Shown here in pieces: positions 8,337-39,123 of a stretch of DNA of 39,123 nucleotides. Below the pieces are notes generated by a model, which saw nothing but the letters and a program-made list of their open reading frames with translations, did no database searches and was not told the DNA's origin. Source of the stretch: a virus; the IMG/VR virus record IMGVR_UViG_3300045988_068423, positions 1 to 39,123 of that record. One strand, written 5' to 3'. The translations under genes were made by a program, and so were the position numbers. The first letter of the stretch is position 1. Each line of letters starts with the position of its first letter.

Positions 8337-9431
8337 TTATTTTTTATTTGTTAGTAACGTGTTAGTAACAGCATCCACAAGTGTCTGCGCGTCGATGTGC
8401 GTATATATGTTTGCGGTGGTGGAATAATCTGCGTGTCCGAGTATTTTTTGCAGCATTTCCGGTGGCAATCTCTCTTTTACCGCCCGGGACGCGTATGTGT
8501 GGCGTGTTGCGTGCGGGGTCTTGCGCTCTATGCCCAGCCGGTCAAGAAGTGGGTAAAAATCACGCCTGCGGAAGTTCGCCGGTACTTTTTGCCCATCGTA
8601 GCCGGATAACAGCAGCTCCCCCGTTGCTCGCTTCGCAAAGTAGGCAAAGTATTGTTTCCCCTCCGGGCGAATGGGGATAATTCGGTTTCGCCCGGCTTCT
8701 GTTTTTTCGCCGCCGATCACATAATCGCCGTGATAGTCTGCCAGCGGCAAAGAAAACAATTCCCCGATACGCATGCCCGTTGCCAGCAGCATCAAGACAA
8801 TTTTCGCCGCATCGCTGTTGTCGAATTTCAATTTACGGATATCTTCCTCCGTGAAGATGTCCTTTTCTTTTTTTATATTTTCTGGCAGCCGGACAAATTT
8901 TGCAAAATTTGTTGTGCAGATTTCCTCTCGGATTGCCCAGTTCGACATCTGCGTTATCAGCTGCTTGTACTTGTTCACGGTGGAATGGCTCTTGGCCATG
9001 TGTGGGTCAAGTACGGCCTGAAAGTCTGCGGTGCGGAGATCGCGAAACTTTTTCCCGTGCAACGGCGTAAATATGCGGTAGGCGTTGTTATATGATTCTA
9101 TCCCCTGCTTGCCGATTTCCTTGTAATGCTCCTCTTTCCACGCATCAAAGACTTCCGCAAAGGTCATATTATACCGCTCCGTTAAGCTCTTGCCGTTCAA
9201 CCGCTCCAAAGCGTCCAAAGCGTCCGTTTTGCGCTCATAGTGCCCGATAATCACTTTGTTTTTCGCGGCCACCCAAGGCGATTTTCTACGCCCCGCCAGT
9301 TTGTATACAGTTCCGGTGCCGTTTGCCCTCTTCGAAGCCTTGCGCCGCTCTGTTACCTGTTTTTTGCCACAGATATGGCAATATACAGCACCCGGGACAA
9401 GAGTTGTTCCGCATTTAATGCAGTTGCTCAT
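8337..9431 (-). CDS. int: Tyrosine integrase with N-terminal zinc-ribbon
   Basis: MSNCIKCGTTLVPGAVYCHICG zinc ribbon. C-terminal HATRHTYAS...LGHADYSTTANIYTH matches the R-H-R-Y catalytic signature. ATGA overlap with the upstream gene. Confidence 0.9.
   Translation of the reverse strand: MSNCIKCGTTLVPGAVYCHICGKKQVTERRKASKRANGTGTVYKLAGRRKSPWVAAKNKVIIGHYERKTDALDALERLNGKSLTERYNMTFAEVFDAWKEEHYKEIGKQGIESYNNAYRIFTPLHGKKFRDLRTADFQAVLDPHMAKSHSTVNKYKQLITQMSNWAIREEICTTNFAKFVRLPENIKKEKDIFTEEDIRKLKFDNSDAAKIVLMLLATGMRIGELFSLPLADYHGDYVIGGEKTEAGRNRIIPIRPEGKQYFAYFAKRATGELLLSGYDGQKVPANFRRRDFYPLLDRLGIERKTPHATRHTYASRAVKERLPPEMLQKILGHADYSTTANIYTHIDAQTLVDAVTNTLLTNKK
8350..8369 (+). repeat. attP arm-type repeats (GTTAGTAAC x2, 11-nt register), inside the int 3' end
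   Basis: GTTAGTAAC at 8350-8358 and 8361-8369, in the same orientation as 8113-8131. Confidence 0.55.
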
Positions 9432-10009
9432 TTTTCTGCTTCCTCGCCTTGTTTGGTTTTTTTGTCCGCCGCAAGAGTGGACAATAGCACGGATGTAAGT
9501 ACGCCGATACCCACCGCCAAAAGCGCAATGAAAATCCATGCAATCGTTCCGGCTGTCTTGGATCGGATCAGGCCTTCGTCCTGCACACGGTAATCAAGCG
9601 CCACATACCATGTAACTATACCCAGCAGGATAGCGGACAGCAGCGATGTGATATACAGCATCGTGCGCTGCCGCCTTGCTTTTTTCTTCTGCTCCTCTGC
9701 TGATTTAGACAGCTCATCGTATGCGCCCTCTATCCGTGCAATGCGCACATCCTCGTCATGGACTTGCTGAAGCTGCTTGATTTGGTCTTGCGCCAAAACA
9801 ACCTCTACAATGCCAAAGTAACGGTCCATAGACACCCCCAGCACCTTGCAGATGGGGCCAGCCGCATACACGCCTGGTGCTTTCGATGTGGATGCAAAAA
9901 AGTTGTTAACGCTGGACAAAGGCACACCGGATTGGTCTGCTATCTCCTGCGCCGTGATGTGCTGTTCCAGTTTTGCGTCCCGGCAAGTGTCCTGCAACGA
10001 TTTCTCCAT
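9428..10009 (-). CDS. XRE-type HTH protein with C-terminal transmembrane segments
   Basis: ITAQEIADQSGVPLSSVNNF is an HTH. Two C-terminal TM helices follow (LYITSLLSAILLGIVTWYV; IAWIFIALLAVGIGVLTSVLL). Start chosen at the RBS-preceded ATG. Confidence 0.65.
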   Translation of the reverse strand: MEKSLQDTCRDAKLEQHITAQEIADQSGVPLSSVNNFFASTSKAPGVYAAGPICKVLGVSMDRYFGIVEVVLAQDQIKQLQQVHDEDVRIARIEGAYDELSKSAEEQKKKARRQRTMLYITSLLSAILLGIVTWYVALDYRVQDEGLIRSKTAGTIAWIFIALLAVGIGVLTSVLLSTLAADKKTKQGEEAEK

Positions 10010-12816: not shown

Positions 12817-13481
12817 GCGATAACGGAGGAAAAGGAATGCTTAAATCATTTGATGAACTTGTAAAACTGGATGTGCGTCCTTACTGCGATGTGCGGGATG
12901 CAAAGGACGAAAGCGGGGAATTAATTAAAGTCCCCTATTTGAGCTGGGCAAAGTGCGTGAAACTGCTGCACGAAAACGGCGCGGAATCCGTTTGGTATGC
13001 GCCCGTTGAATGCCCGGAAACAAAGACCTATCTTTGGCCGCAGGCAAAAGTAGTCACGAGTAAGGGGCGGGAAACCGAGTGCTGGTTTGTGCGGGTGCTG
13101 ATCCACATTGACGGCATGGAATACACCTATGACACCCCGCTGCTGAACGGATCTCTTGTTGTATACACCGATACGCTGAACCAGCTCCGCATAAACAATG
13201 CCCTGGCGAGAGCATTTGTGAAGGGCGTTGCTGTCCGCACGGGGCTTGGATTTGACTTGTGGGCAGGGGGAGATACCGACGATGGCGAGGACGATTTGAG
13301 CCGCCATAGCATTTGGGCAATAAAAGAGCGGCTGGAAAGGCTCATCACCATCAAGGAAAAGAACGGCCTTGACCACCGAGATTTGCTGGCCAGTGTTGGC
13401 ATTAGCGACAAGCAGCTAAATAACCTTATGGGATATTTCGCGACGATTGACAAGCTTGAAAAGGCGGTCAGCAAACTGTGA
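12813..13481 (+). CDS. Single-strand annealing protein (DUF1071/Sak3-like recombinase)
   Basis: VPYLSWAKCVKLLHENGAE and ALARAFVKGVAVRTGLGFDLWAGGD match the pattern I recall for this SSAP family. It is paired with a downstream exonuclease. ATGA-coupled. Confidence 0.65.
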   Translation: MSDNGGKGMLKSFDELVKLDVRPYCDVRDAKDESGELIKVPYLSWAKCVKLLHENGAESVWYAPVECPETKTYLWPQAKVVTSKGRETECWFVRVLIHIDGMEYTYDTPLLNGSLVVYTDTLNQLRINNALARAFVKGVAVRTGLGFDLWAGGDTDDGEDDLSRHSIWAIKERLERLITIKEKNGLDHRDLLASVGISDKQLNNLMGYFATIDKLEKAVSKL

Positions 13482-14065
13482 TACGGAACCACGATAGGAG
13501 CGGATGGTTTGGAGCGTCGGACACGGCTGCGATTATGGGATCGTGGGACACAGAAACATTCCGCAGATGGTGGGCTGTAAAGCTTGGTATTCGGCAAGAC
13601 CATTTTGCCAATGCGGCGATGCAGGCCGGAACGGCATACGAACACAAGATACTGGATGCCGCAAATGTCCAAACGAGAGATAGGCAGATAAAAGTGCGCT
13701 GTTTGCGGCTGCGCGTGAATTACGACGGGGAAACCCGCGACATGATACACGAGGTCAAAACGCACAGCAAGCCCGTTTTTAAGGTCACCAAGGGATATTG
13801 GATGCAGTGTCAAGTGGAGATGTACGCCAGCGGATGCGGAATCTTTAGAAAGCGGAAAGCCTGCCAAATCATCGCATATCGGATGTCACCGGCGGAATAT
13901 GAGAATTTTTTCCTTCCGATCGACATGAATAGGCTTTCCGCTCACAAGGTCGAGTATGACAGCGAGTGGATAGAATCGCAGTATCTCCCACGCCTGCGAT
14001 ATTTGGCAAAATGCTTAAAGCGCGGGAAGTGGCCGCAGTCAGAGGAGGTAATATGCAGCAAGTAA
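13478..14065 (+). CDS. YqaJ-like PD-(D/E)XK exonuclease
   Basis: GTGA overlap with the previous gene. GASDTAAIMG...GTAYEHKIL...HEVKT match the viral recombinase exonuclease motif order. Confidence 0.7.
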   Translation: MIRNHDRSGWFGASDTAAIMGSWDTETFRRWWAVKLGIRQDHFANAAMQAGTAYEHKILDAANVQTRDRQIKVRCLRLRVNYDGETRDMIHEVKTHSKPVFKVTKGYWMQCQVEMYASGCGIFRKRKACQIIAYRMSPAEYENFFLPIDMNRLSAHKVEYDSEWIESQYLPRLRYLAKCLKRGKWPQSEEVICSK

Positions 14066-25082: not shown

Positions 25083-25547
25083 ATGAGCAAAAAGGCGACG
25101 CTGCCTTATGATGTGCGGTTGGAGTGCATTGCTTATGTGCGCGGATATCCGCGCCGAGTGCGGGCGTATCGCGAGGCCCGGGCGGAGATCCTGGGAGGGA
25201 CGCATAGCGCTACGGAGGGAATGCCAAGAGGACAAGGCGCCGGCAGACCCGCCGAGAGCAAGGCGGAGCAGCTTGCAGCCATAGAGAACTGGCCGGAAAC
25301 CAAGAAAATGCGGGCTGTGGAATATGCCATAGACCGCTGCGGGCTGGATTTGGAGAGCGAGAGCGTCCGCAAGCAGCTTACACAGGGGATCATGCGCAAC
25401 TGTCAGGGCAAGCACAAGTATTCCCGAAGCAGGATTATCGTGCCGGGGATCAGCGAAGCGACATTCCGACGGAGGAAAGAGATATTCCTGTTCGATATCG
25501 CTACATATTGTGGTTTCGATAGGAAAGATGAGCCAAATTCCACTTAA
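25083..25547 (+). CDS. Putative late-gene transcriptional regulator (RinA/ArpU-like by position)
   Basis: AAAGGAGGG RBS. It is the last protein gene before the packaging module. The assignment is by position only. Confidence 0.4.
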   Translation: MSKKATLPYDVRLECIAYVRGYPRRVRAYREARAEILGGTHSATEGMPRGQGAGRPAESKAEQLAAIENWPETKKMRAVEYAIDRCGLDLESESVRKQLTQGIMRNCQGKHKYSRSRIIVPGISEATFRRRKEIFLFDIATYCGFDRKDEPNST

Positions 25548-25559
25548 TGATGTGCTACA

Positions 25560-26270
25560 ATAGGTACAGTGGATGATAGGACATGGTCATTCACGCGATT
25601 TCCCAATCATCACTTTTCCTCCCTTCTATGCGCCGCCGGTATTGGGCGCACCGCGCAAGCGGACTCGGAAACGGGCGTACCGGCACAAACAGCCTGTAGG
25701 GAAACCTATGGGCTGTTGTTATATGCAGGCGTAGCTCAGTCGGTAGAGCATTTGGTCGCTGGTTCGAGTCCAGCCGCTTGCACAAGAGGCCGGGTAGCGC
25801 CCGGACACTGTGAGACCGTTCGTCGTGGCTCACATGGAAATGACAATGGTCGCTGAAAACTGCACGGTGGGCGCTTGGAAGTCTCTTTTGGAGAGAATGG
25901 GGCGCAGCGTAATGGTGGCGATGGAGCCAACCCGTTGTGTGACAATCTAAGCGGCAAGACGGCCAATATGCGGCATAGGTGCCCCGTAAGGGGAGACCAC
26001 AGCGAGTGACGGGGACTTTCCTCGAAGCGCTAAAGCAGGGCAGGACTGCAATGCCGCACCAAAAGCGGAGAGCCGCTGCCGTGGGCAAATGGCATAGCGC
26101 CTGCCCGGAAGTGCGGCTATACCGCTCAGAAGTGAGCTGTGGAAAAGACATTGCCACCTGCTGGCAAACTGTGTAACCCATGTTTGAGAGCTTCCAGAAG
26201 GCCGCATGGGAGGGGAAAGACTGTTACTGTAGCCAAGGGGTGGGGGCTGGTGACAAACAAGGGAGGAAAA
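25560..26270 (+). ncRNA. Candidate large structured ncRNA (ROOL/GOLLD-like class suspected, unverified)
   Basis: About 720 nt with no RBS-preceded ORF. Dense nested helices with GNRA loops on the plus strand, plus long-range pairings. Helix coordinates are listed in the findings. Confidence 0.55.
25725..25782 (+). ncRNA. tRNA-like element lacking the anticodon arm
   Basis: GCAGGCG-TA-GCTCAGTCGGTAGAGC-A-TT-TGGTC-GCTGGTTCGAGTCCAGC-CGCTTGC-A. Acceptor stem, D arm and T arm are intact, but 2 nt replace the 17-nt anticodon arm. No encoded CCA. Confidence 0.7.
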
Positions 26271-26275
26271 CGGCT

Positions 26276-26776
26276 ATGGAAATCATAAAACCCGGCAAAG
26301 TCAGGAGAGTAAAGCTGGAATGCCCGGAATGCGGGTGTGAATTCGCCTGTTCTCCGGTAGAAATGGTACGCAGATACGGAACTGTGTTTGCTAAGTGTCC
26401 ACAGGAGGGATGTGGCAGAAGCGTGGAAGTGCCAAACGGAATCCCCGAGTACATCGAGCCTGCAAACCATACTGCCATTGGAACGATCACTGTGGTGCTG
26501 TCAGGGGCAACCGTTACAGAAGATCCTGTAGGCGATGAGCGGTATATCACAAGGGTGACGAATGTATCGAAGGGAGTTGCAGAGCATATCATAGCACTGG
26601 GCGCAGATACCAGCATCTCCCTGATGATTGATGGCAAATACCCGGAGCGATTCTACATGGCAAATACCGGGATGCTTATCGCCTACAAGGCCCACGATGG
26701 GAAACTCTACACGAATAGGAGTGACACATGTAATGGCTACAAAGAAACCTACCGCCATCGCAAAAGCAAAGGATAA
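26276..26776 (+). CDS. Hypothetical protein with N-terminal zinc ribbon
   Basis: GGGAGG RBS. Contains CPECGC...CPQEGCG. Confidence 0.6.
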   Translation: MEIIKPGKVRRVKLECPECGCEFACSPVEMVRRYGTVFAKCPQEGCGRSVEVPNGIPEYIEPANHTAIGTITVVLSGATVTEDPVGDERYITRVTNVSKGVAEHIIALGADTSISLMIDGKYPERFYMANTGMLIAYKAHDGKLYTNRSDTCNGYKETYRHRKSKG

Positions 26777-27302
26777 CCGACCGGCGACTGGCAGAGGCGG
26801 CAAAGGAAACTTCCCTTCCTGTCTTCCTGACCTTAGCAGCGATAAAGATAGAGCCCTTGTATCTCGCCTCCTTACAGAAGCCCTTGTAGAATACAGACAG
26901 CCAAAGGTAAAGAGTGACGAAGAACTGACGGAGAGAATAAACGACTATTTTGCCCGGTGCGCTGAGACAGGACAGACCCCAACAGTAGAGGAACTATACA
27001 TGTCAACAGGCTACGCAATTAGCACGGTTAAGGACTGGCTATCCGGAAGACGCAAGGGATTTAGCCCCGAAACAGCGTCCATTATAAAAAAAGCCAAGGG
27101 GTTTATGCAGACTTTTGACGCAAAACTTGTGGTTTCTGGGAAGCTGGAATTCCTTGCCTATTGCTTCCGTGCCAAGAACTATTACGGCATGGTGGACAAG
27201 CAGGAGATGGTTTTGACGCCGAACCAGCCGCAGATTGAGGGCTTGACTCCCGAACAGCTCCAGCAGAAGTACATAGAAGCCAGCGACTTTGATGCAAAAT
27301 GA
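26733..27302 (+). CDS. terS: Terminase small subunit
   Basis: ERINDYFARCAETGQTPTVEELYMSTGY...FRAKNYYGMVDKQE fits the gp3-type small terminase pattern. AGGAGTGA RBS. Confidence 0.7.
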   Translation: MATKKPTAIAKAKDNRPATGRGGKGNFPSCLPDLSSDKDRALVSRLLTEALVEYRQPKVKSDEELTERINDYFARCAETGQTPTVEELYMSTGYAISTVKDWLSGRRKGFSPETASIIKKAKGFMQTFDAKLVVSGKLEFLAYCFRAKNYYGMVDKQEMVLTPNQPQIEGLTPEQLQQKYIEASDFDAK

Positions 27303-27314
27303 GCCGAAAGCGAG

Positions 27315-27523
27315 CGACTTTTGCACGACTTTCCGTTAATTCCGGGAAAGTAGGCAAGAAAAATCCCGCCTTTATACACGGAATTTTGTAAACGACTATG
27401 ATTTTGGGGTAAATGAGCGATTTTGGCGCAGGCACTTGCGACTTTCACAGCGACTTTGCCAGCGACTTTCGCACGGAGGGGAACGACTTTGCCAGCGACT
27501 TTCGCGACTTTCCCGGAGACTTT
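27315..27523 (+). repeat. Iteron array: at least 9 direct copies of CGACTTT (AGCGACTTTSSC), mostly in 12-nt register
   Basis: Exact copies start at 27315, 27326, 27439, 27451, 27463, 27484, 27496 and 27505. Variants start at 27393, 27418 and 27517. Confidence 0.85.
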
Positions 27524-27820
27524 GGCGGAGCGCCACGCGCGGCGAAGCAGCCACCGGAGACCCCCGAGACTGCACCGCCGGAGCAGGGGGCAGCCGCCGA
27601 CAAAGCCACAGGTGAACGAGAACGGCGGCAAGCTGGCAGCGCAAGCGGCGAGCCACGGAGCAGGGGACAACGACACGCCACAAGGCCATAAACAACGGCC
27701 ACAGGGCAAGCAGGGCGGCGGAGGTATAGGGATAGCCCCAAACATTAAAACGCCTCACATATGCATTAAAATGGCAAATAGGGCATACAGCAGAAAAGCC
27801 CCCGGAATACACCAGGAGCA

Positions 27821-27854
27821 AAGGAAAACCCCGCACAGCGTGAGCCATGCGGGG
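27821..27854 (-). terminator. Rho-independent terminator of the leftward island operon
   Basis: CCCCGCA / TGCGGGG stem. On the minus strand it is followed by TTTTCCTTT. Confidence 0.7.
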
Positions 27855-27888
27855 CGGTGTCAATATTCAATGCACTTAAAACCAGTTA

Positions 27889-28101
27889 TCACAATAAGTA
27901 CGGGATCCCGTTGATGATACGGGCGTATTCGTACCCGTTGATACATCCCGATATTTTCCGGTCTTTGGAGATCCACAAGATCAAATCAGGGTCATGGACG
28001 GCATTTATCCAGTATTCCGCGCCACGGTGCATGATGTGTGTTCCGCTGTATCTCATGGGATCGATGTTATCAACAATATACTTGGCTGTAATGCGCTTCA
28101 T
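27889..28101 (-). CDS. Hypothetical protein (island operon)
   Basis: AAGGAGGAAAACGAT RBS. 70 aa. Confidence 0.6.
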   Translation of the reverse strand: MKRITAKYIVDNIDPMRYSGTHIMHRGAEYWINAVHDPDLILWISKDRKISGCINGYEYARIINGIPYLL

Positions 28102-28250
28102 ATCGTTTTCCTCCTTATGCGCTAATATTAAGGTTATTTTTGGAGCTTTGCAAGGTCAAGCAGCAGTAGAATGGGCTGCAGCAGGATATACAGCAAGATC
28201 AAGGGCGGCACCTCCTTACATGGCAATTGTAGCACATACGCCGGAGCAGG

Positions 28251-28517
28251 TCAAGCGAAAGTAAACCGCCGGGCGGTTGTCGTCTTGGTGTAGCGGGCTG
28301 CAATCTCCGGGAGATCCTTTTTTAGTCTGGTTGTGTCTACCCTGGAGGATGTAACCGCCTTATATGTGGCCTTGTGTTCTGACCCCGCCAGGGATTCCAC
28401 CCCGGCGGCGGTCATGCGCTCTTTTAGCTGGTCCTTGAGGCTTTCCACCATTGCGGAGGCTTCCTCCTGCATCCGGATATACTCCGCAAGCTCTTTCATA
28501 ATGCTGTCAATGTTCAT
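28251..28517 (-). CDS. Hypothetical protein (island operon)
   Basis: 88 aa, helical N-terminus. The start lies 5 nt after the upstream stop. Confidence 0.6.
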   Translation of the reverse strand: MNIDSIMKELAEYIRMQEEASAMVESLKDQLKERMTAAGVESLAGSEHKATYKAVTSSRVDTTRLKKDLPEIAARYTKTTTARRFTFA

Positions 28518-28522
28518 TGTGT

Positions 28523-28765
28523 TTACACCCCCATTTCAAAACGGGCACCGAAAAACCAATAGGTTTTATTTTTCGATACTTCCACGGCGTCCACGCAATC
28601 CGCCGGGCTGCACCCGAAAACATGACTCTTTACAACCTTTTCCCATTCCTTGACGGTATATAATTCTCTTGCTATGAGAATATCCCCACAATTAACATAT
28701 TTCCCCCGCTTGATAACGCATAACCGCTTATTATCATATTGCGGTTTTACCCGGTAATATTTCAT
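28523..28765 (-). CDS. Hypothetical protein (island operon)
   Basis: 80 aa, MKYYRVKPQYDN...TYWFFGARF. The pattern recalls widespread phage/ICE small proteins; this was not verified. Confidence 0.6.
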   Translation of the reverse strand: MKYYRVKPQYDNKRLCVIKRGKYVNCGDILIARELYTVKEWEKVVKSHVFGCSPADCVDAVEVSKNKTYWFFGARFEMGV

Positions 28766-28777
28766 AATTAAACCCCC

Positions 28778-29002
28778 TTAAAACAAGATAAACAGATTTG
28801 AACAACGCCCGATAATGGCATATAATGCGCCGGTTTCCGTGTCCTGCACAAGTCCGCCGTTAATACCATAAACCCCGGAAGAATAGCCCACCTTTTCAAG
28901 CCTGCGCAGCGTGTAAATATATTCGCTCGGCTTATTGGTATAATCCTCAGCCACCCCGAGCCGCACAAGCTCCCGCAGCTCTTTCAATTTATACTTCCTC
29001 AT
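28778..29002 (-). CDS. Hypothetical protein (island operon)
   Basis: ATGA overlap with the upstream gene. 74 aa, MRKYKLKELRELV...GVYGINGGL. Confidence 0.6.
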   Translation of the reverse strand: MRKYKLKELRELVRLGVAEDYTNKPSEYIYTLRRLEKVGYSSGVYGINGGLVQDTETGALYAIIGRCSNLFILF

Positions 29003-29418
29003 TGCTGCACCTCCTGCCGGGCGGCCCGGATAGCTCCATACATCCGGCGGAAAGCCTGATGCAGTGCCCTGGCTTGCACGTCGAGCCATTCTTCCCGGCT
29101 GTTCGGCCTGCGGTCGCCGTTGCGGGTCTTTTTGAGCTCGGACGGGGTGCAGAGCGCGGCGGCTATGTCTCCATCATACACAAGGGCCGAGCCGCCCCAG
29201 CTGTATTTACTCCAGTCCCGTGCGCCGTTCAGCGCTGCGGCCTCGGCGGTAGTCCATGTTGCGAGATCGTCGGCGGAGATATAACCGTCTTTGTAGTAGT
29301 CCGCGATCTGCTGCAGCATATCCACGGCATAGGCTGTAACGCCACGGCTCCACGCGCTGCGGTCATTGCGCTGCTCCAGTGTCTTCTTTACCTCTGCAAG
29401 TACTGTTGTATAATCCAT
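28999..29418 (-). CDS. Hypothetical protein (first gene of the island operon)
   Basis: GGGAGG RBS. 139 aa. ...NGARDWSKYSWGGSALVYDGDIAAALCTPSE...WLDVQARAL recalls proteins from the leading regions of Firmicutes conjugative elements; this was not verified. Confidence 0.65.
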   Translation of the reverse strand: MDYTTVLAEVKKTLEQRNDRSAWSRGVTAYAVDMLQQIADYYKDGYISADDLATWTTAEAAALNGARDWSKYSWGGSALVYDGDIAAALCTPSELKKTRNGDRRPNSREEWLDVQARALHQAFRRMYGAIRAARQEVQQ

Positions 29419-29449
29419 TGTATTACCTCCCGGCCTGTGGCCTAATCTC

Positions 29450-29478
29450 TTGCCAACGGCTGCCGGATGTGGTATACT
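29450..29478 (+). promoter_or_regulatory. Sigma-70/A-type promoter (rightward) with extended -10
   Basis: TTGCCA, a 17-nt spacer, then TGG-TATACT. Confidence 0.55.
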
Positions 29479-29564
29479 CTCCGTGCTGGCCTGTTGGCTG
29501 GTGTGGGGGCGTTCCCGGGTTGCTTCGGTAGGCTGCCGGGCGCGCCCTCGTCTTGTATGTGTCT

Positions 29565-29593
29565 ATTGTAATGCCCATTAGGGTATTTGTCAA
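29565..29593 (-). promoter_or_regulatory. Near-consensus promoter of the leftward island operon
   Basis: Minus strand reads TTGACA, a 17-nt spacer, then TACAAT. The spacer contains the ATGCCC-ATTA-GGGTAT dyad. Confidence 0.7.
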
Positions 29594-29676
29594 TAGTTAT
29601 GGGCAATATAATGCCCGTATAATATATGCAATAATTTGTGCGGGTATTTGTATAATATGCCCACTGTGGTATACCC
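29571..29676. promoter_or_regulatory. Cluster of seven GGGYAT/ATRCCC half-sites (operator or res-like site)
   Basis: ATGCCC at 29571, GGGTAT at 29581, GGGCAA at 29601, ATGCCC at 29611, GGGTAT at 29642, ATGCCC at 29657, ATACCC at 29671. They form three dyads plus one lone half-site. Confidence 0.6.
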
Positions 29677-29861
29677 TAACGGCACACACGGCGGGCGGCA
29701 GTCCAGGGCGTTCCCTGGCGGTGCTGGCCGGGGGCGGGGGATATGCGGCGGCAGCCGGGGGCGGGGTAACCCCCAAAAATTCCGCAAAAAATAAAAAGCC
29801 GTTTTACCCCATGTTGTAAAATCCGGCAAAAACAAAAAGGCTATTTTGGGCATAAAACATA

Positions 29862-29890
29862 TTGACACAAATTATGCCGTGTGCTACACT
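29862..29890 (+). promoter_or_regulatory. Promoter of the serine recombinase gene
   Basis: TTGACA, a 17-nt spacer, then TACACT, about 30 nt upstream of the RBS. Confidence 0.7.
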
Positions 29891-29919
29891 ACCCTTACAA
29901 GATGAAGGGAGCAATGCAC

Positions 29920-30507
29920 ATGAAAGTCGGATATATTCGGGTGTCCACAGAGGAGCAGAACACGATCCGCCAAGAGGTACTGATGAAAGACCTTGGTGTG
30001 GAGCGTGTCTACATGGACAAAGCGAGTGGCAAGAGCCGCACAGGCAGGCCGCAGCTGGAAGCGATGATGGATTTCGTCCGAGAGGGCGATGTGGTCATTG
30101 TTGAAAGCATCAGCCGTTTTGCGAGAAGCACAAGGGACTTGTTGACGCTGGTAGAGCAGCTCACAGAAAAAGGTGTGGGCTTTGTATCGCAGAAGGAATC
30201 CATTGACACGAATACGCCGCAGGGCAAGTTCATGCTCACGGTGTTTGGTGCAATGGCAGAGCTGGAACGTGAGCAGACCTTACAGCGGCAGAGAGAGGGC
30301 ATAGCGGCTGCAAAAGCGGCTGGAAAGTACAAGGGTCGGCAACCAATAGCACTTAATGAAGAGCTGGTTAAATCGGTGCATGAGCAATGGTACAAAAACG
30401 AGATAACCACATCATATGCAATTAAGCAGCTTGGAGTGAGCCGCAATACCTTTTACCGCCGGATGTGGGACTACGAGGATTCTGCAGGAATCCCGAGACG
30501 GCGCTGA
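29920..30507 (+). CDS. Small serine recombinase (resolvase/invertase family)
   Basis: MKVGYIRVSTEEQ (catalytic Ser), ...VVIVESISRFARS..., and a C-terminal HTH (YAIKQLGVSRNTFYRR). Confidence 0.9.
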   Translation: MKVGYIRVSTEEQNTIRQEVLMKDLGVERVYMDKASGKSRTGRPQLEAMMDFVREGDVVIVESISRFARSTRDLLTLVEQLTEKGVGFVSQKESIDTNTPQGKFMLTVFGAMAELEREQTLQRQREGIAAAKAAGKYKGRQPIALNEELVKSVHEQWYKNEITTSYAIKQLGVSRNTFYRRMWDYEDSAGIPRRR

Positions 30508-30529
30508 TGAATAGAGGGAGGAAAGAGAA

Positions 30530-30913
30530 ATGAAAAGATTGGCTTGTTTTGTATTGTGCCTTGCGCTGGTTCTTTCTGTGACGGCGTGTGGGAAGCAGTA
30601 TAGTGAGTTTTACCGAAATAGCCCGGATGCCGCCTCTTTGATGGAGGACGCAATCGAACTTTTGGATATGTGCATAAACAAGGAGATAACCGCCGAGGAG
30701 TGTGCAGAGCAGTTGCAAACAATGGGAGAGCTTAACCGAGGCGGAGATGATATAAACATAAGCTCCACGGCACTCAGAATATCTATTGCGGGGCATCAAA
30801 TTGACGGCGTTTTGCTTGGCGTGAGAATTGGGTATAAAACAATGATCGATGTCAAAAACGCCGTGAAGGAGCAGCGAGAATCTTTATACAACAGTCTGCA
30901 TGGGAAAGAATAA
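30530..30913 (+). CDS. Lipoprotein
   Basis: GGAGGAAAGAG RBS. Signal peptide with lipobox LSVTAC. Lower GC than the genome. Confidence 0.75.
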   Translation: MKRLACFVLCLALVLSVTACGKQYSEFYRNSPDAASLMEDAIELLDMCINKEITAEECAEQLQTMGELNRGGDDINISSTALRISIAGHQIDGVLLGVRIGYKTMIDVKNAVKEQRESLYNSLHGKE

Positions 30914-30972
30914 CAAGCCAACAGGGATGTTTGCGAATGTTGGGGCGGAGTGAATAAAAAGGAGGCGCGATT

Positions 30973-31077
30973 ATGGATAAAAAGGTTTTGGCAATTTTAG
31001 TTGGTGCTATTTTGATTATTGTTGGCGTAGTTTTTGCGTTTCAAGGCGGCGGGGCGTTGGGATACTACGCCGGATAA
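30973..31077 (+). CDS. Small membrane peptide (34 aa)
   Basis: AAAGGAGG RBS. MDKKVLAILVGAILIIVGVVFAFQGGGALGYYAG. AT-rich codons. Confidence 0.5.
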   Translation: MDKKVLAILVGAILIIVGVVFAFQGGGALGYYAG

Positions 31078-31147
31078 CAAGGACGGAAAACCAAATAGAA
31101 TGGACTACCGATTTTCCGGCAGTCCATTTTTTATTGCAGGAGGACAA

Positions 31148-32800
31148 ATGGATTATCGGAAGATTGCGGAAAGCATCAAAAACCGCATAAAGAAAACGCA
31201 TGACCGGGAAGCCTACAAGGATTTGCTGGCGTTGTGCATTGGGTACGAAGCGGAAGATTTTGCTGCGGCGCACCAGTTAAATTCCGAAGTCCGAAAGATG
31301 ACCTCCGAGGCACTTCGTAACGGAAACCCAAAAGATGCGGAGTATTTCTACACCCTACATAAGCAGGCCATGCTGTTTGACGCGCCGCATGATTTCGATA
31401 CCTTCCTGCTGTATGTGGAGATGGACAGAAAGCCGGAGAAGCGGTTTTATGCTCCACGCAGGCGGTATCTAAGACCTATTGTGCAGGGGTATCAAGATGT
31501 CCTTGACGGCAAATTGAGGCTGCTGACCATTTCGCTTCCGAAAAGAGCCGGGAAAAGCCAGCTGGGAATCAATTTTATCAACATGGTTTCCGGGAGAAAC
31601 CCGGATAAATCGTCCCTTATGGAAGGCACGGGCGATGATCTTGTGCGAAGCTTCTATAACGGCTGTCTGGAATATCTGCAAACGCCAAACGAGTATTTGT
31701 TCTACGATGTGTTCCCGGATGCTCCATTGGTGCAGACCAACGCAGACACGAAAATTATCAATCTGCGGTCTAAATCCAGATTCCCCACGGTCATGTGCCG
31801 GTCGATTGACGCACGGCAGGTTGGCTTGTCGGAGGCAACCAATGTCCTTTATTTAGATGACTGTGTGGAGGGCAGAGAGGAAGCGAAAAACCGTCAACGG
31901 CTGGATGATAAGTGGGAAGTAATTTCCGGCGATATTTTAGGCCGTGCCATCGAGGGTACGCCTATTGTGGCCACCGGGACGAGATACTCCCTATATGACC
32001 CAATAGGGCATTTACAGGAAGAAGCGCAAAAAGGCGGCTGGACATGGAAAGCCATTGAAATCCCCGCCCTTGACCCAATTACAGACGAAAGCAATTATGA
32101 GTATGAGCGGGAGGGTAAAAAGGTTTTTACCACCGCTTATTTCCGCGAGCAGAGAGAGCTTCTGAGCACGGAACAGTTTGAAAGCGAATTCCAGCAGCAG
32201 CCATTTGAAGCAAAAGGGCTGCTTTTCAATAAGTCGGAGCTGAACTATTTCTTTGAACTGCCGGTAGATCGTGACCCGGATGCAATCATTGCCGTGGCAG
32301 ACACCGCAGAAAGCGGGAAAGACAGCACGGCGATGCCCGTTGCGGCCTTATATGGAGAGGAAGTCTACATCGTGGATGTGGTGTACGATGATTCTCCCGC
32401 AGAGGTCACAAAGCCGGAATGCGCAAAGTGCCTGATTGACAACAAAGTGGGCGATGCACTGTTTGAATCCAACAACGCCGGTATGTATTTTGCGAGAGAT
32501 GTTGCAGAAATCGTCAAAAACGCCGGATTTAACACCAGCATACGGACAAAAAGGACGATTTCCAACAAGCAGACAAGAATTGAGTTTGCATCGGATGGAA
32601 TCAAGAAGAATTTTTACTTCAAGCATCCGTCCACATACAAGAGAGGGTGTCAATACTGGGGATTCATGCAGGAAGTGACCACCTATGTAAGAAGCGGCAA
32701 GGTGGCGCACGATGACGCGCCTGATTCCTTGTCGTTGCTGGAGAACGAAATCCGAAACCGCATCAGCGGCAAGATTGAGATATTCAAAAGACCGTTTTAA
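31148..32800 (+). CDS. terL: Terminase large subunit (headful/pac type likely)
   Basis: GCAGGAGG RBS. Walker A LPKRAGKS, Walker B-like LYLDD, and a C-terminal nuclease region. Confidence 0.9.
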   Translation: MDYRKIAESIKNRIKKTHDREAYKDLLALCIGYEAEDFAAAHQLNSEVRKMTSEALRNGNPKDAEYFYTLHKQAMLFDAPHDFDTFLLYVEMDRKPEKRFYAPRRRYLRPIVQGYQDVLDGKLRLLTISLPKRAGKSQLGINFINMVSGRNPDKSSLMEGTGDDLVRSFYNGCLEYLQTPNEYLFYDVFPDAPLVQTNADTKIINLRSKSRFPTVMCRSIDARQVGLSEATNVLYLDDCVEGREEAKNRQRLDDKWEVISGDILGRAIEGTPIVATGTRYSLYDPIGHLQEEAQKGGWTWKAIEIPALDPITDESNYEYEREGKKVFTTAYFREQRELLSTEQFESEFQQQPFEAKGLLFNKSELNYFFELPVDRDPDAIIAVADTAESGKDSTAMPVAALYGEEVYIVDVVYDDSPAEVTKPECAKCLIDNKVGDALFESNNAGMYFARDVAEIVKNAGFNTSIRTKRTISNKQTRIEFASDGIKKNFYFKHPSTYKRGCQYWGFMQEVTTYVRSGKVAHDDAPDSLSLLENEIRNRISGKIEIFKRPF

Positions 32801-38794: not shown

Positions 38795-39123
38795 ATGGAA
38801 ACATTTTCCAATCGGTGCAGGGATGTGCTGAATTCTATGCTGTCCGATTATCGGAGTGCCATGTCCAGCGTTTCCGTATCTTCCTCCGGCAATGTGTCCT
38901 ATCGCCCTGTTTCGCGAATTAGAATCCCGCGTTTTGCATCCGGCGGCGTGGTTGACGAGGGACAGCTATTTATCGCGCGTGAATCTGGCCCCGAAATGGT
39001 TGGAAGAATGGGCAATCGTACCGCTGTCGCAAACAACGACCAAATCGTGGACGGCATTTCTGCGGGCGTGTATCGTGCGGTGCGCGAAGCAATGGGCAAT
39101 GGCTCAAAGGGACAGCCTATGAC
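38795..39123 (+). CDS. Tape measure protein, N-terminal part (continues at 2-241 after the circular junction); abnormally short
   Basis: ATG lies 2 nt after the T-segment stop. The frame is open to the window end. Total length across the junction is only about 142 codons. Confidence 0.6.
38983..39123. repeat. Terminal direct repeat, copy 2 (identical to 1-141)
   Basis: Exact match to the first 141 bases of the window. Confidence 0.95.

Follow-up and report, generated by a model that had tools for sequence, protein, structure and literature searches.

The 39,123-nt viral sequence analyzed here (IMG/VR record IMGVR_UViG_3300045988_068423, positions 1 to 39,123; hereafter the window) carries a 3.8-kb block of small genes and control elements between its small and large terminase genes, and this block is the subject of the present analysis. 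The window closes on itself through an exact 141-nt terminal overlap (1-141 = 38983-39123) and is a complete circular assembly of ∼38.98 kb with its break inside a structural gene, which fits a permuted genome without proving one. The small terminase gene, terS, is located on the + strand at 26733-27302 (phrog_606, E 1e-7; PF16677 GP3_package, 1e-6, slightly below the Pfam cut-off); its open reading frame (ORF) is open from 26628, the ATG at 26733 is the likely start, and relatives align from about residue 34. The large terminase gene, terL, occupies 31139-32800 on the same strand (phrog_38, 1e-45). The two genes are nonadjacent, being separated by 27303-31138, and every feature that a preliminary description, made from the DNA letters, had listed for 27303-31147 was present on re-examination. 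From left to right the block holds an iteron array, a T-depleted tract, a leftward operon of five genes (g139, g75, g80, g88, and g70 in the order of reading), a structured leader ahead of g139, a control region, a gene for a small serine recombinase (rec), a lipoprotein gene, and a gene for a 34-aa hydrophobic peptide. Elsewhere the window encodes a tyrosine integrase (8337-9539; phrog_1, 5e-47), a Sak-like annealing protein and a RecE/YqaJ-like exonuclease (both at 12.8-14.1 kb), DNA methyltransferases, and a portal protein. Its nearest matches in annotated collections are unannotated human fecal phage contigs, and prophage relatives are found in Oscillospiraceae (Dysosmobacter, Faecousia, Ructibacterium), with more distant ones in Lachnospiraceae.

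Relatives were gathered by terL similarity in an IMG/VR scan (427 found, 80 loci kept), and the gap was compared in the 73 viral relatives that have both terminase genes (terL 78-99% identical). The serine recombinase census covered 91 loci and the cassette-sharing counts 83; the numbers of loci sharing a segment were read from a DNA similarity map, calculated per 100 bp. The gap was present in 73 of 73 viral relatives at a length of 3141-4832 bp (median 3749), and prophages at 62-77% terL identity have a terS-terL gap of 2.9-5.2 kb, several of them with leftward homologs of g139 or g75. No terS-terL junction was empty, whether in the 73 viral loci or in the prophages, whose terL identity goes down to 62%, and repeat searches of the window revealed no direct or inverted repeats or att-like ends bracketing 27.3-31.1 kb. 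The left part of the block is continuous with terS, such that terS, the iterons, the T-poor tract, and the operon terminators form one conserved segment reaching to ∼27900 (39 loci, ∼86% identity). A conserved backbone is made up of this segment, g88, g139, g75, the leader (60 loci), and rec (41), each shared by about 30-60 loci, and of the last 40 nt before terL. Three slots break the backbone, namely g70 (7 loci), g80 (0), and the lipoprotein and peptide genes (2 and 0, respectively), and the boundaries of these cassettes are individual and fall at gene junctions, with no common pair of ends. The G+C contents of the lipoprotein gene (0.458), of 30914-31098 with the 34-aa peptide gene (0.454), and of g80 (0.424) are below that of the genome (0.528), and the AT-richness that the preliminary description had pointed to, most of all at 30530-31077, holds, though it is modest (0.45-0.46 vs 0.528).

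That description had seen in the block a mosaic island, perhaps a hitchhiking mini-element or a cargo module moved by its recombinase. The mosaic character stands, as do accessory, nonstructural genes with their own promoters and terminators and lineage-specific cassettes of lower GC; the insertion does not, given the missing empty site, the missing flanking repeats, and the ancestral backbone. A mobile element would be in keeping with the recombinase gene and with the variable, lower-GC cassettes, but it is largely refuted by a gap that all 73 viral loci and the distant prophages carry, by the lack of direct or inverted end repeats, by an iteron end that runs on from terS, and by cassettes that each have their own gene-junction boundaries instead of a shared end pair, and we give it hardly any credence. 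A block carried by all relatives, with genes of packaging or structural families, had been named as the sign of an ordinary core region; all relatives do carry a block, yet its genes are neither packaging nor structural. We conclude that the backbone (g139, g75, g88, leader, and recombinase) is ancestral to the clade and that two things had been merged, a packaging signal with its adjacent T-poor tract, both of which belong to the terS block, and an ancestral, recombinase-organized accessory locus. The explanation that we favor, with a probability of roughly 0.6, takes the block not as an inserted mobile element but as an accessory locus that is ancestral to, and fixed in position within, a clade of temperate, siphophage-like phages of gut Oscillospiraceae and Lachnospiraceae.

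The iteron array (27283-27523, + strand) contains 11 copies of (A)GCGACTTT with at most one mismatch; 7 of these are exact, and the 39 kb has just one more exact copy elsewhere. The copies are arranged in a left cluster (27283-27332, 3 copies) and a right cluster (27417-27523, 8 copies) around a conserved core, ..TTTATACACGG.., and the array is real and far above chance. A CGACTWT motif recurs at the terS stop codon and directly past it in all Oscillospiraceae-type lineages, down to terS identities of 31-46%; relatives have 4-9 copies in 460 nt, compared with 0.03-0.17 expected from the remainder of each locus. In one relative, AGCGACTAT is repeated there in six perfect tandem units, and the Lachnospiraceae-type prophages have another repeated motif at this position (CAGAAG, CAGAAAG). 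Because it is conserved alongside terS across lineages, the array probably serves as the pac-type site recognized by terS and would thus belong to the packaging module. In phage SPP1, the pac site is made of pacL, pacC, and pacR, with repeated boxes, and other small-terminase recognition sites likewise consist of such boxes. As in SPP1, two clusters of short repeats flank a conserved core at terS and the motif changes with the terS lineage, whereas the array described here lies at the terS 3' end and past it, instead of preceding the gene or lying within it, and as a pac site it is predicted.

The adjoining T-depleted tract (27524-27745, + strand) has 8 T in 222 nt (3.6%) with A, C, and G in roughly equal amounts, a composition count that confirms the earlier observation. 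The lowest-T 200-nt interval contains 4 T against a genome mean of 42.6 (standard deviation 9.8) and is the compositional extreme of the genome. In relatives (∼32 sequence variants) the tract is 205-365 nt long and differs in sequence, with T at ≤6% and A, C, and G about equal, and it is missing from some lineages. The tract is probably noncoding because the overlying ORFs use different frames in different relatives, and selection on it seems to act on composition, not on sequence. Both the iterons and the T-poor tract had been counted in a separate island; this is corrected here, both being in the conserved block that runs on from terS. In one relative (L041:4638-4877), a segment matching window 27266-27570 (the terS 3' end plus iterons) is inverted, and 27157-27265 and 27571-27677 on either side of it are deleted, so that terS would be truncated; the locus may be a defective prophage or an assembly chimera.

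The leftward operon (− strand), its promoter, and its terminator were all recovered as first described. Its five ORFs all have Shine-Dalgarno sequences. The promoter P_L (29593-29565; TTGACA-17-TACAAT, a consensus match only) agrees with the consensus at 11 of 12 positions and has a −35 element that is invariant across 54 aligned sequences, and the operon is closed by two tandem intrinsic terminators (27855-27828 and 27819-27798) with 12-bp and 8-bp GC-rich stems followed by T runs. The first gene, g139 (28999-29418), encodes a 139-aa protein with an all-helical domain of an extensive family, which comprises 1051 clusters at 50% identity; among the best 150 matches, the domain is mostly C-terminal, behind variable N-terminal extensions, some of which are DUF3849. 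The AlphaFold model of g139 is all-helical with a mean predicted local distance difference test (pLDDT) score of 96, and Foldseek, which had been suggested for all five operon proteins and was applied to this one, retrieved no fold relative for it (best E 0.9 in PDB and 0.4 in BFVD). Homologs of g139 lie amid runs of small unannotated genes in unrelated gut phages, one of Eggerthella and two of Parabacteroides, and these runs are probably early regions. The start codon of g75 (28778-29002, 74 aa) and the stop codon of g139 overlap as ATGA, an arrangement suggestive of translational coupling; g75 is kept in most relatives, is 83% identical in a distant prophage (L139), and has a nonsynonymous-to-synonymous codon ratio of 0.17. 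The next gene, g80 (28523-28765, 80 aa, GC 0.42), is a cassette unique to this genome (0 of 83 loci) and gave no family match in Pfam, NCBIfam, PHROGs, or PADLOC.

The fourth gene, g88 (28251-28517, 88 aa), is conserved in 36-56 loci and matches phrog_6244 (9e-14) and positions 275-361 of phrog_434 (4e-10). Large homolog searches mostly returned near-identical proteins without names, the exception being one g88 source name, "predicted phage-related endonuclease"; g88 also matches inside a "putative endonuclease" of an Exiguobacterium phage. These matches identify g88 as a stand-alone C-terminal domain of YqaJ/RecE-type phage exonucleases; its AlphaFold model is too poor for a fold search (pLDDT 66). 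The exonuclease of the window (13478-14065) covers only the nuclease part of phrog_434 (positions 62-223), and the missing C-terminal part (275-361) is encoded apart, as g88, 14 kb away. Because the window exonuclease matches the nuclease part only, a role of g88 alongside the phage recombination system is possible. The last gene, g70 (27889-28101), is a variable 70-aa cassette common to 7 of 83 loci at ∼70% DNA identity, with no family above the curated cut-off and a sub-threshold NCBIfam match to Rhs_assc_core (E 0.006, 17 bits vs a 32.5-bit cut-off). A promoter-like site at 28254-28226 (− strand; TTGACC-17-TACAAT with TG) overlaps the g88 stop codon and precedes g70, which may be a separately transcribed moron within the operon. 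A PDB sequence search gave no match for g139, g88, terL, or terS.

Two of the operon proteins had been said to recall the leading regions of conjugative elements. In the plasmid searches made, this likeness found no support: g139 and g88 had no tblastn match in 72,556 PLSDB plasmids, a PLSDB DNA search with the whole block returned nothing, and the sole trace is the DUF3849 found on some g139-family proteins. The preliminary description had also entertained a defense island. Such an island, borne by the prophage and directed against other phages, would share its position and variability with prophage defense hot spots, and exported cargo could exclude superinfecting phages, but none of the eight module proteins was matched by PADLOC (E up to 0.1) or contained a nuclease, ATPase, TIR, Sir2, or similar domain in the domain searches, and all are small, so that we regard this explanation as very unlikely.

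Between P_L and the g139 ribosome-binding site lies a conserved structured element of ∼130 nt with three hairpins (29426-29556, − strand), which is better conserved than the flanking genes and is retained even where the first downstream gene differs. A covariance model (R1) found exactly one copy of this leader per genome, only in lineages with the leftward operon. On the R1 alignment, 88.7% of the cells were paired, compared with 31-37% when the partners were slid by 1-3 columns. The leader haplotypes show compensatory changes (GCCAAC/GTTGGC vs GACCAG/CTGGTC; CGGA/TCCG vs GCGT/ACGC; GGGCG/CGCCC vs GGAGCG/CGCTCC); nine pairs were changed on both sides, and the changes trace to few independent events (two or three haplotypes). 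Each recorded double-sided change replaces one Watson-Crick pair by another and hence gives no strand decision. In folding with shuffle controls, the − strand (mRNA sense) had a z of −3.9 (0/200 shuffles) and the + strand a z of −1.9. An antisense RNA, which had been read from the lower + strand folding energy, was rejected when these controls made the − strand the more significant. RNAalifold on plain MAFFT alignments missed the hairpins, the haplotypes being out of register, and the covariance model fixed the register. The leader had no Rfam 15 match (E up to 1, searched over 25400-31200), the only hits in that range being a tRNA-like one at 25725 and, on the opposite strand of that spot, Plastid-ycf2 at E 0.42, a chance-level score, and no second copy of the leader was found elsewhere in the genome. 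We conjecture that it is a riboregulator or a put-like element.

The rec gene (29920-30507, + strand) encodes a 195-aa small serine recombinase of the resolvase/invertase type (PF00239, 1e-44; phrog_125, 5e-66) and, as the preliminary description held, has its own consensus promoter. This promoter, P_rec (29848-29890, + strand; a consensus match only), has TTGACA at 29862-29867, a 17-nt spacer, and TGn-TACACT at 29885-29890, and its −35 element is bracketed by the half-sites GGGCAT (29848-29853) and ATGCCG (29874-29879). Three palindromes with GGGYAW half-sites are found at 29571-29662, the first within the P_L spacer (ATGCCC-N4-GGGTAT, 29571-29586), followed by GGGCAA-N4-ATGCCC (29601-29616) and GGGTAT-N9-ATGCCC (29642-29662). 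They are candidate Rec-binding (res-like or operator) sites, and such palindromes with AT-rich spacers were not found elsewhere in the genome, including the immunity region. When 91 loci were searched with a profile built from their recombinases, 85 proved to have a serine recombinase gene on the + strand no more than 3.5 kb ahead of terL. The enzymes fall into three or more divergent types: one of 195-207 aa (ISRFAR), one of 250-265 aa (SDRVAR, NDRIAR) that is sometimes in tandem with the first, and a canonical type (LDRLGR/LDRLAR) in a distant group.

The catalytic domain of Rec is near-invariant among 41 close relatives (128 nonsynonymous vs 728 synonymous codon differences, ratio 0.18), and nearly all of the variation falls at residues 141-180, as discrete helix-turn-helix (HTH) alleles. 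The C-terminal HTH itself gave a weak HTH_8 hit only (E 0.02), and the γδ and Tn3 resolvases align through residues 177-185. The alleles co-vary with the half-sites at P_L, CGCAT-type half-sites occurring with allele C in 14 of 14 cases and GGGCAT-type half-sites with allele A or B in 13 of 13. The split recurs at P_rec, where the half-sites are ARCAT and TTGCG in all allele-C loci that have retained a P_rec of their own; the −35 and −10 elements between the half-sites are identical. In the 80% terL group the HTH is of a third sequence, and the matching positions have TTGCAW half-sites (5 within 330 nt vs ∼0.6 expected), those at P_rec being TTGCAT and TTGCAG. The DNA between the co-varying parts, the HTH and the operators, is conserved. 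The simplest reading of these data is that Rec binds the palindromes and controls both promoters.

In the transposons Tn3 and γδ, res lies between tnpA and tnpR, and resolvase represses both promoters. The window resembles them in that its recombinase gene is divergent from the other unit, intergenic dyads of varied spacing lie over both promoters, and the site sequence co-varies with the DNA-binding domain; it differs in having no transposase and no transposon ends, in two palindromes that are shorter than res subsites, in the Ser at the equivalent of D67 of Tn3 resolvase, and in that its sites are predicted. Two further arrangements were seen among relatives. In L006, L010, L012, L020, L027, L031, L044, and L046, ∼1.1 kb of extra DNA lies between window positions 29550 and 29920 and encodes a 259-265-aa serine recombinase (SDRVAR or NDRIAR) in tandem with, and upstream of, the 195-aa Rec; the gene for the latter then lacks its own promoter. 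In the 80% terL group, a 261-aa recombinase stands in for the small rec in those members that are without it.

Rec keeps the equivalents of Tn3 resolvase residues Y6, R8, S10, Q14, Q19, D36, R45, R68, and R71, which Olorunniji and Stark report as essential (PMC2794168), and has Ser at the equivalent of D67 (ISRFARS). D67 is not essential, its mutants retaining substantial cleavage and recombination in vitro, but the D67A and D67N variants showed no resolution in vivo (PMC2794168). Recombination by Rec is possible but uncertain. A related explanation, which differs from the one favored here in emphasis only, is that Rec acts with the control region as a functional system of site-specific recombination and that regulation is secondary; its possible tasks are to circularize terminally redundant genomes, to resolve multimers, or to act as a hot spot that reassorts the two arms of the genome. 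The retention of all residues essential in Tn3 resolvase, with a change only at the nonessential D67 equivalent, argues for this explanation, as do the strong purifying selection on the catalytic domain, the presence of a serine recombinase in 85 of 91 loci despite nonorthologous replacement, the differing spacings of the several palindromes, as in res, and the clustering of mosaic breakpoints at 29525-29570 and at 29920. The sites also lie ∼2.1-2.3 kb downstream of the putative pac, which would place them inside the terminal redundancy of the first headful if that exceeds ∼6%. Against this, a second site is neither needed nor visible in a monomer, classical small resolvases require a supercoiled substrate whereas injected linear DNA is not supercoiled, and the in vivo defect of the D67A and D67N resolvases has to be taken into account. 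We consider recombination as the primary function possible, though unlikely. The arrangement recalls Cre/loxP beside pac in P1, in that a temperate phage with a separate means of maintaining lysogeny has a site-specific recombinase, together with its presumed site, a few kb downstream from where packaging starts; unlike the present serine recombinase of resolvase/invertase type, Cre is a tyrosine recombinase that is active on linear DNA.

The best solved relative of Rec is Gin (6e-31, with the alignment over residues 1-145), with γδ resolvase at 3e-25, and phrog_125 carries the name "DNA invertase". Together with the opposite orientation of the operon in a distant group (L074-L083), this could point to a DNA invertase role for Rec, with the promoter region or the operon as the segment flipped in an inverton-type phase switch. 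However, no convincing inverted repeats flank the control region or the operon, near the gene or genome-wide (the best pair being 14 nt at 86%), and at the DNA level the control region or operon was inverted in 0 of ∼65 assembled relatives. The only minus-strand matches in 25-34.5 kb were the terS-end/iteron segment of L041 and a g75 match in the distant L081, and the change of orientation between lineages accompanies 40-57% protein divergence, which indicates an old rearrangement. A phase switch is thus highly improbable.

The stretch between rec and terL is a cargo slot. Directly after the rec stop codon, a gene at 30530-30913 (+ strand; common to 2 loci) encodes a 127-aa lipoprotein with a signal and lipobox (...LSVTAC), and a gene at 30973-31077 (+ strand; AAGGAGG ribosome-binding site) encodes the 34-aa hydrophobic peptide, which is shared by 0 loci and is unique to this genome. 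Both are plausible genes, in line with the preliminary description. In the cargo families examined in relatives, all of the N termini were signal, lipobox, or transmembrane sequences, and one family is a tRNA_anti-like OB-fold. The rec-cargo unit ends at an intrinsic terminator (31099-31135, + strand) consisting of the hairpin AATGGACTACCG..CGGCAGTCCATT followed by TTTTTTATT, with the T-run ending just before the terL Shine-Dalgarno sequence. A terminator occupies this pre-terL position in three lineages with three different sequences, and late transcripts from upstream must therefore, we infer, read through it, an arrangement in which an antitermination element could have a place. The 34-aa peptide gene is overlain by an antisense promoter-like site (31044-31015), and a terminator-like hairpin is present on the − strand at 30876-30859; the layout of 30859-31077 resembles a type I toxin-antitoxin pair. 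The slot is also reminiscent of prophage lipoproteins for superinfection exclusion, such as Ltp of Streptococcus phage TP-J34, in its small lipoprotein or membrane-anchored protein, host-type promoter, and variable prophage position, but no sequence similarity to them was found.

In the explanation that we favor, the iteron array beside terS would be the pac-type recognition site of the packaging module, and the remainder of the block would be two divergent units read by host RNA polymerase from sigma-70-type promoters, with a terminator at each outer end that would insulate both units, moron-like, from late transcription. The promoters at 29593-29565 and 29862-29890 and the terminators at 27855-27798 and 31099-31135 have the arrangement expected of a moron, as consensus matches only. 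The small serine recombinase would be the organizing component, its HTH binding the palindromes over both promoters, and both units would be autoregulated, P_L and P_rec firing upon entry into a naive cell and being turned off as Rec accumulates. Rec, with its essential catalytic residues kept, may also recombine at the palindromic sites. The leftward unit would yield small cytoplasmic proteins (the g139 family, g75, g88, and swappable cassettes) that act early, most likely in host takeover, counter-defense, or help to the recombination system of the phage. The rightward unit would couple rec to a hypervariable slot for an exported, lipid-anchored, or membrane protein, whose role would most likely be lysogenic conversion or superinfection exclusion. 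Cassettes would most likely be exchanged by homologous recombination at conserved flanks, these being the rec 3' end, the pre-terL terminator, and the gene boundaries of the operon. A further idea, that the position of the operon relative to pac matters for early entry, was dropped, the orientation of the operon being opposite in the distant group.

Several points weigh against this explanation. Six loci, all of them Lachnospiraceae-type prophages, have no recombinase and yet keep the gap, and in the distant group the operon is codirectional with rec and an XRE-type HTH gene precedes rec, such that the regulator there might not be the recombinase. The co-variation of operators and HTH alleles could in part reflect linkage of parts that are <1 kb apart, and two of the palindromes span 16 and 21 bp overall, which is shorter than known serine-recombinase subsites. 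The nonorthologous replacement of recombinases argues that selection keeps recombination, not repression alone, and expression of the units, DNA binding, and recombination are predictions from sequence. No function was assignable to g139, g75, g80, or g70; these and the lipoprotein had no informative match in PADLOC, Pfam, NCBIfam, or PHROGs, and ten operon, cargo, and regulator proteins of relatives gave nothing informative save the tRNA_anti-like match of one cargo type, a weak DUF7659, and a PHROG HTH (regulator c17). Moreover, the relatives were picked by terL, and the statement that there is no empty site applies inside this clade only. In the distant group (L074-L083 and L127), the homologs of g75 and g88 are on the + strand, a ∼101-aa XRE-type HTH gene overlaps the start of rec, and the same promoter/operator sequence (TTGACAAC..ATTYAGTGTA..AAT) stands before the operon and before the HTH-rec pair. 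We read this as one-regulator-for-two-units logic that would be kept there with a different regulator.

A more far-reaching set of proposals, which we offer tentatively and think unlikely to hold jointly, takes the data further in four respects. A protein of the serine resolvase/invertase type would be the specificity-determining organizer of a phage accessory module; the exchangeable HTH alleles and their matching operators would constitute "module immunity types" that set a self-limiting immediate-early burst, comparable to the Tn3 transposase burst; the sites just downstream of pac could be a serine-recombinase counterpart of Cre/lox, circularizing or reassorting genomes; and the three-hairpin leader would be a new cis-acting RNA acting, for example, in put-like antitermination or translational control.

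The locus is best filed with the known phage morons and accessory hot spots, among which it is unusual for its Tn3-res-like control architecture and for several uncharacterized conserved elements. With the morons of lambdoid phages and HK97 and the defense hot spots of P2 and P4 it shares a fixed position, its own promoters and terminators, content that varies between close relatives, and lower-GC cassettes; unlike them, it has a clade-wide backbone (recombinase, g139, g75, g88, and structured leader), a control region apparently tied to a serine recombinase, and a location between pac-type iterons and terL. A literature search found nothing describing this arrangement, no paper on DUF3849, and one preprint on TerS-TerL cargo in another gut phage lineage, in which gut prophages of a Ca. 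Heliusvirales subfamily carry genus-specific auxiliary genes between TerS and TerL (bioRxiv 10.64898/2026.05.11.724261). For annotators, the terminase gap is a conserved, regulated accessory locus with defined swap slots and a place to seek genes for lysogenic conversion or early functions, and we caution against labeling it as an inserted island. The clade is abundant in the human gut, with 427 IMG/VR relatives and thousands of g139 and g88 homologs in metagenomes. The locus also provides compact, testable items, namely HTH alleles that co-vary with promoter-embedded sites, a covariation-backed leader that is absent from Rfam, a g139 family whose confident fold matches nothing solved, and the T-poor tract, on which selection seems to act through composition. 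None of these elements overturns current ideas.

Between the palindromes and P_rec lies a near-invariant G-run box, GGCCGGGGGCGGGGGATATGCGGCGGCAGCCGGGGGCGGGGTAACCCCC (29720-29775, + strand), which is conserved in the 98% and 80% terL groups and of which no second copy was found elsewhere in the genome. Five contigs, from three metagenome ids, have left ends within 5 nt of one another at 29735-29740, and one of these contigs (L025:1-40) starts with a Nextera transposase adapter (TCGTCGGCAGCGTCAGATGTGTATAAGAGACAG) fused straight to the box. The box at 29735-29740 might be a physical genome end (cos or a short terminal repeat), in which case the operon and rec would be end-proximal early genes and the iterons would serve in terS docking only. 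The coinciding contig ends, the adapter joined there, and the near-invariance of the box across groups are in favor of such an end, but the window and the contig of one relative assemble through the box as circles, the 20-nt overlap at the box in that full-circle contig equals k−1 for k=21 and is typical of a low-coverage break, the four G-runs (G-quadruplex or G4-like) can give sequencing drop-out, and the contig starts vary by up to 5 nt. We judge a physical end at this site to be improbable as an account of the block; for the contig starts taken by themselves, G4-like drop-out and a physical DNA end both fit.

A second hot spot of contig starts lies at 25670-25791, where five contigs begin 20-55 nt upstream of, or just past, a tRNA-like element, and both hot spots may have either a technical origin (G4-like drop-out, or a repeat that the host also has) or a physical one, in DNA ends. 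The tRNA-like element (25725-25782, + strand) scores 49 bits against Rfam tRNA and has acceptor, D, and T arms, with the anticodon arm replaced by 2 nt; ARAGORN returned nothing for it, and it matched no other Rfam family. It is part of a ∼600-nt ORF-free stretch (25566-26180) that lies just upstream of the terS region and follows an extended −10-like sequence, TGCTACAAT. This stretch folds with a z of −2.6 on the + strand compared with −1.1 on the − strand, and it may be a large phage noncoding RNA.

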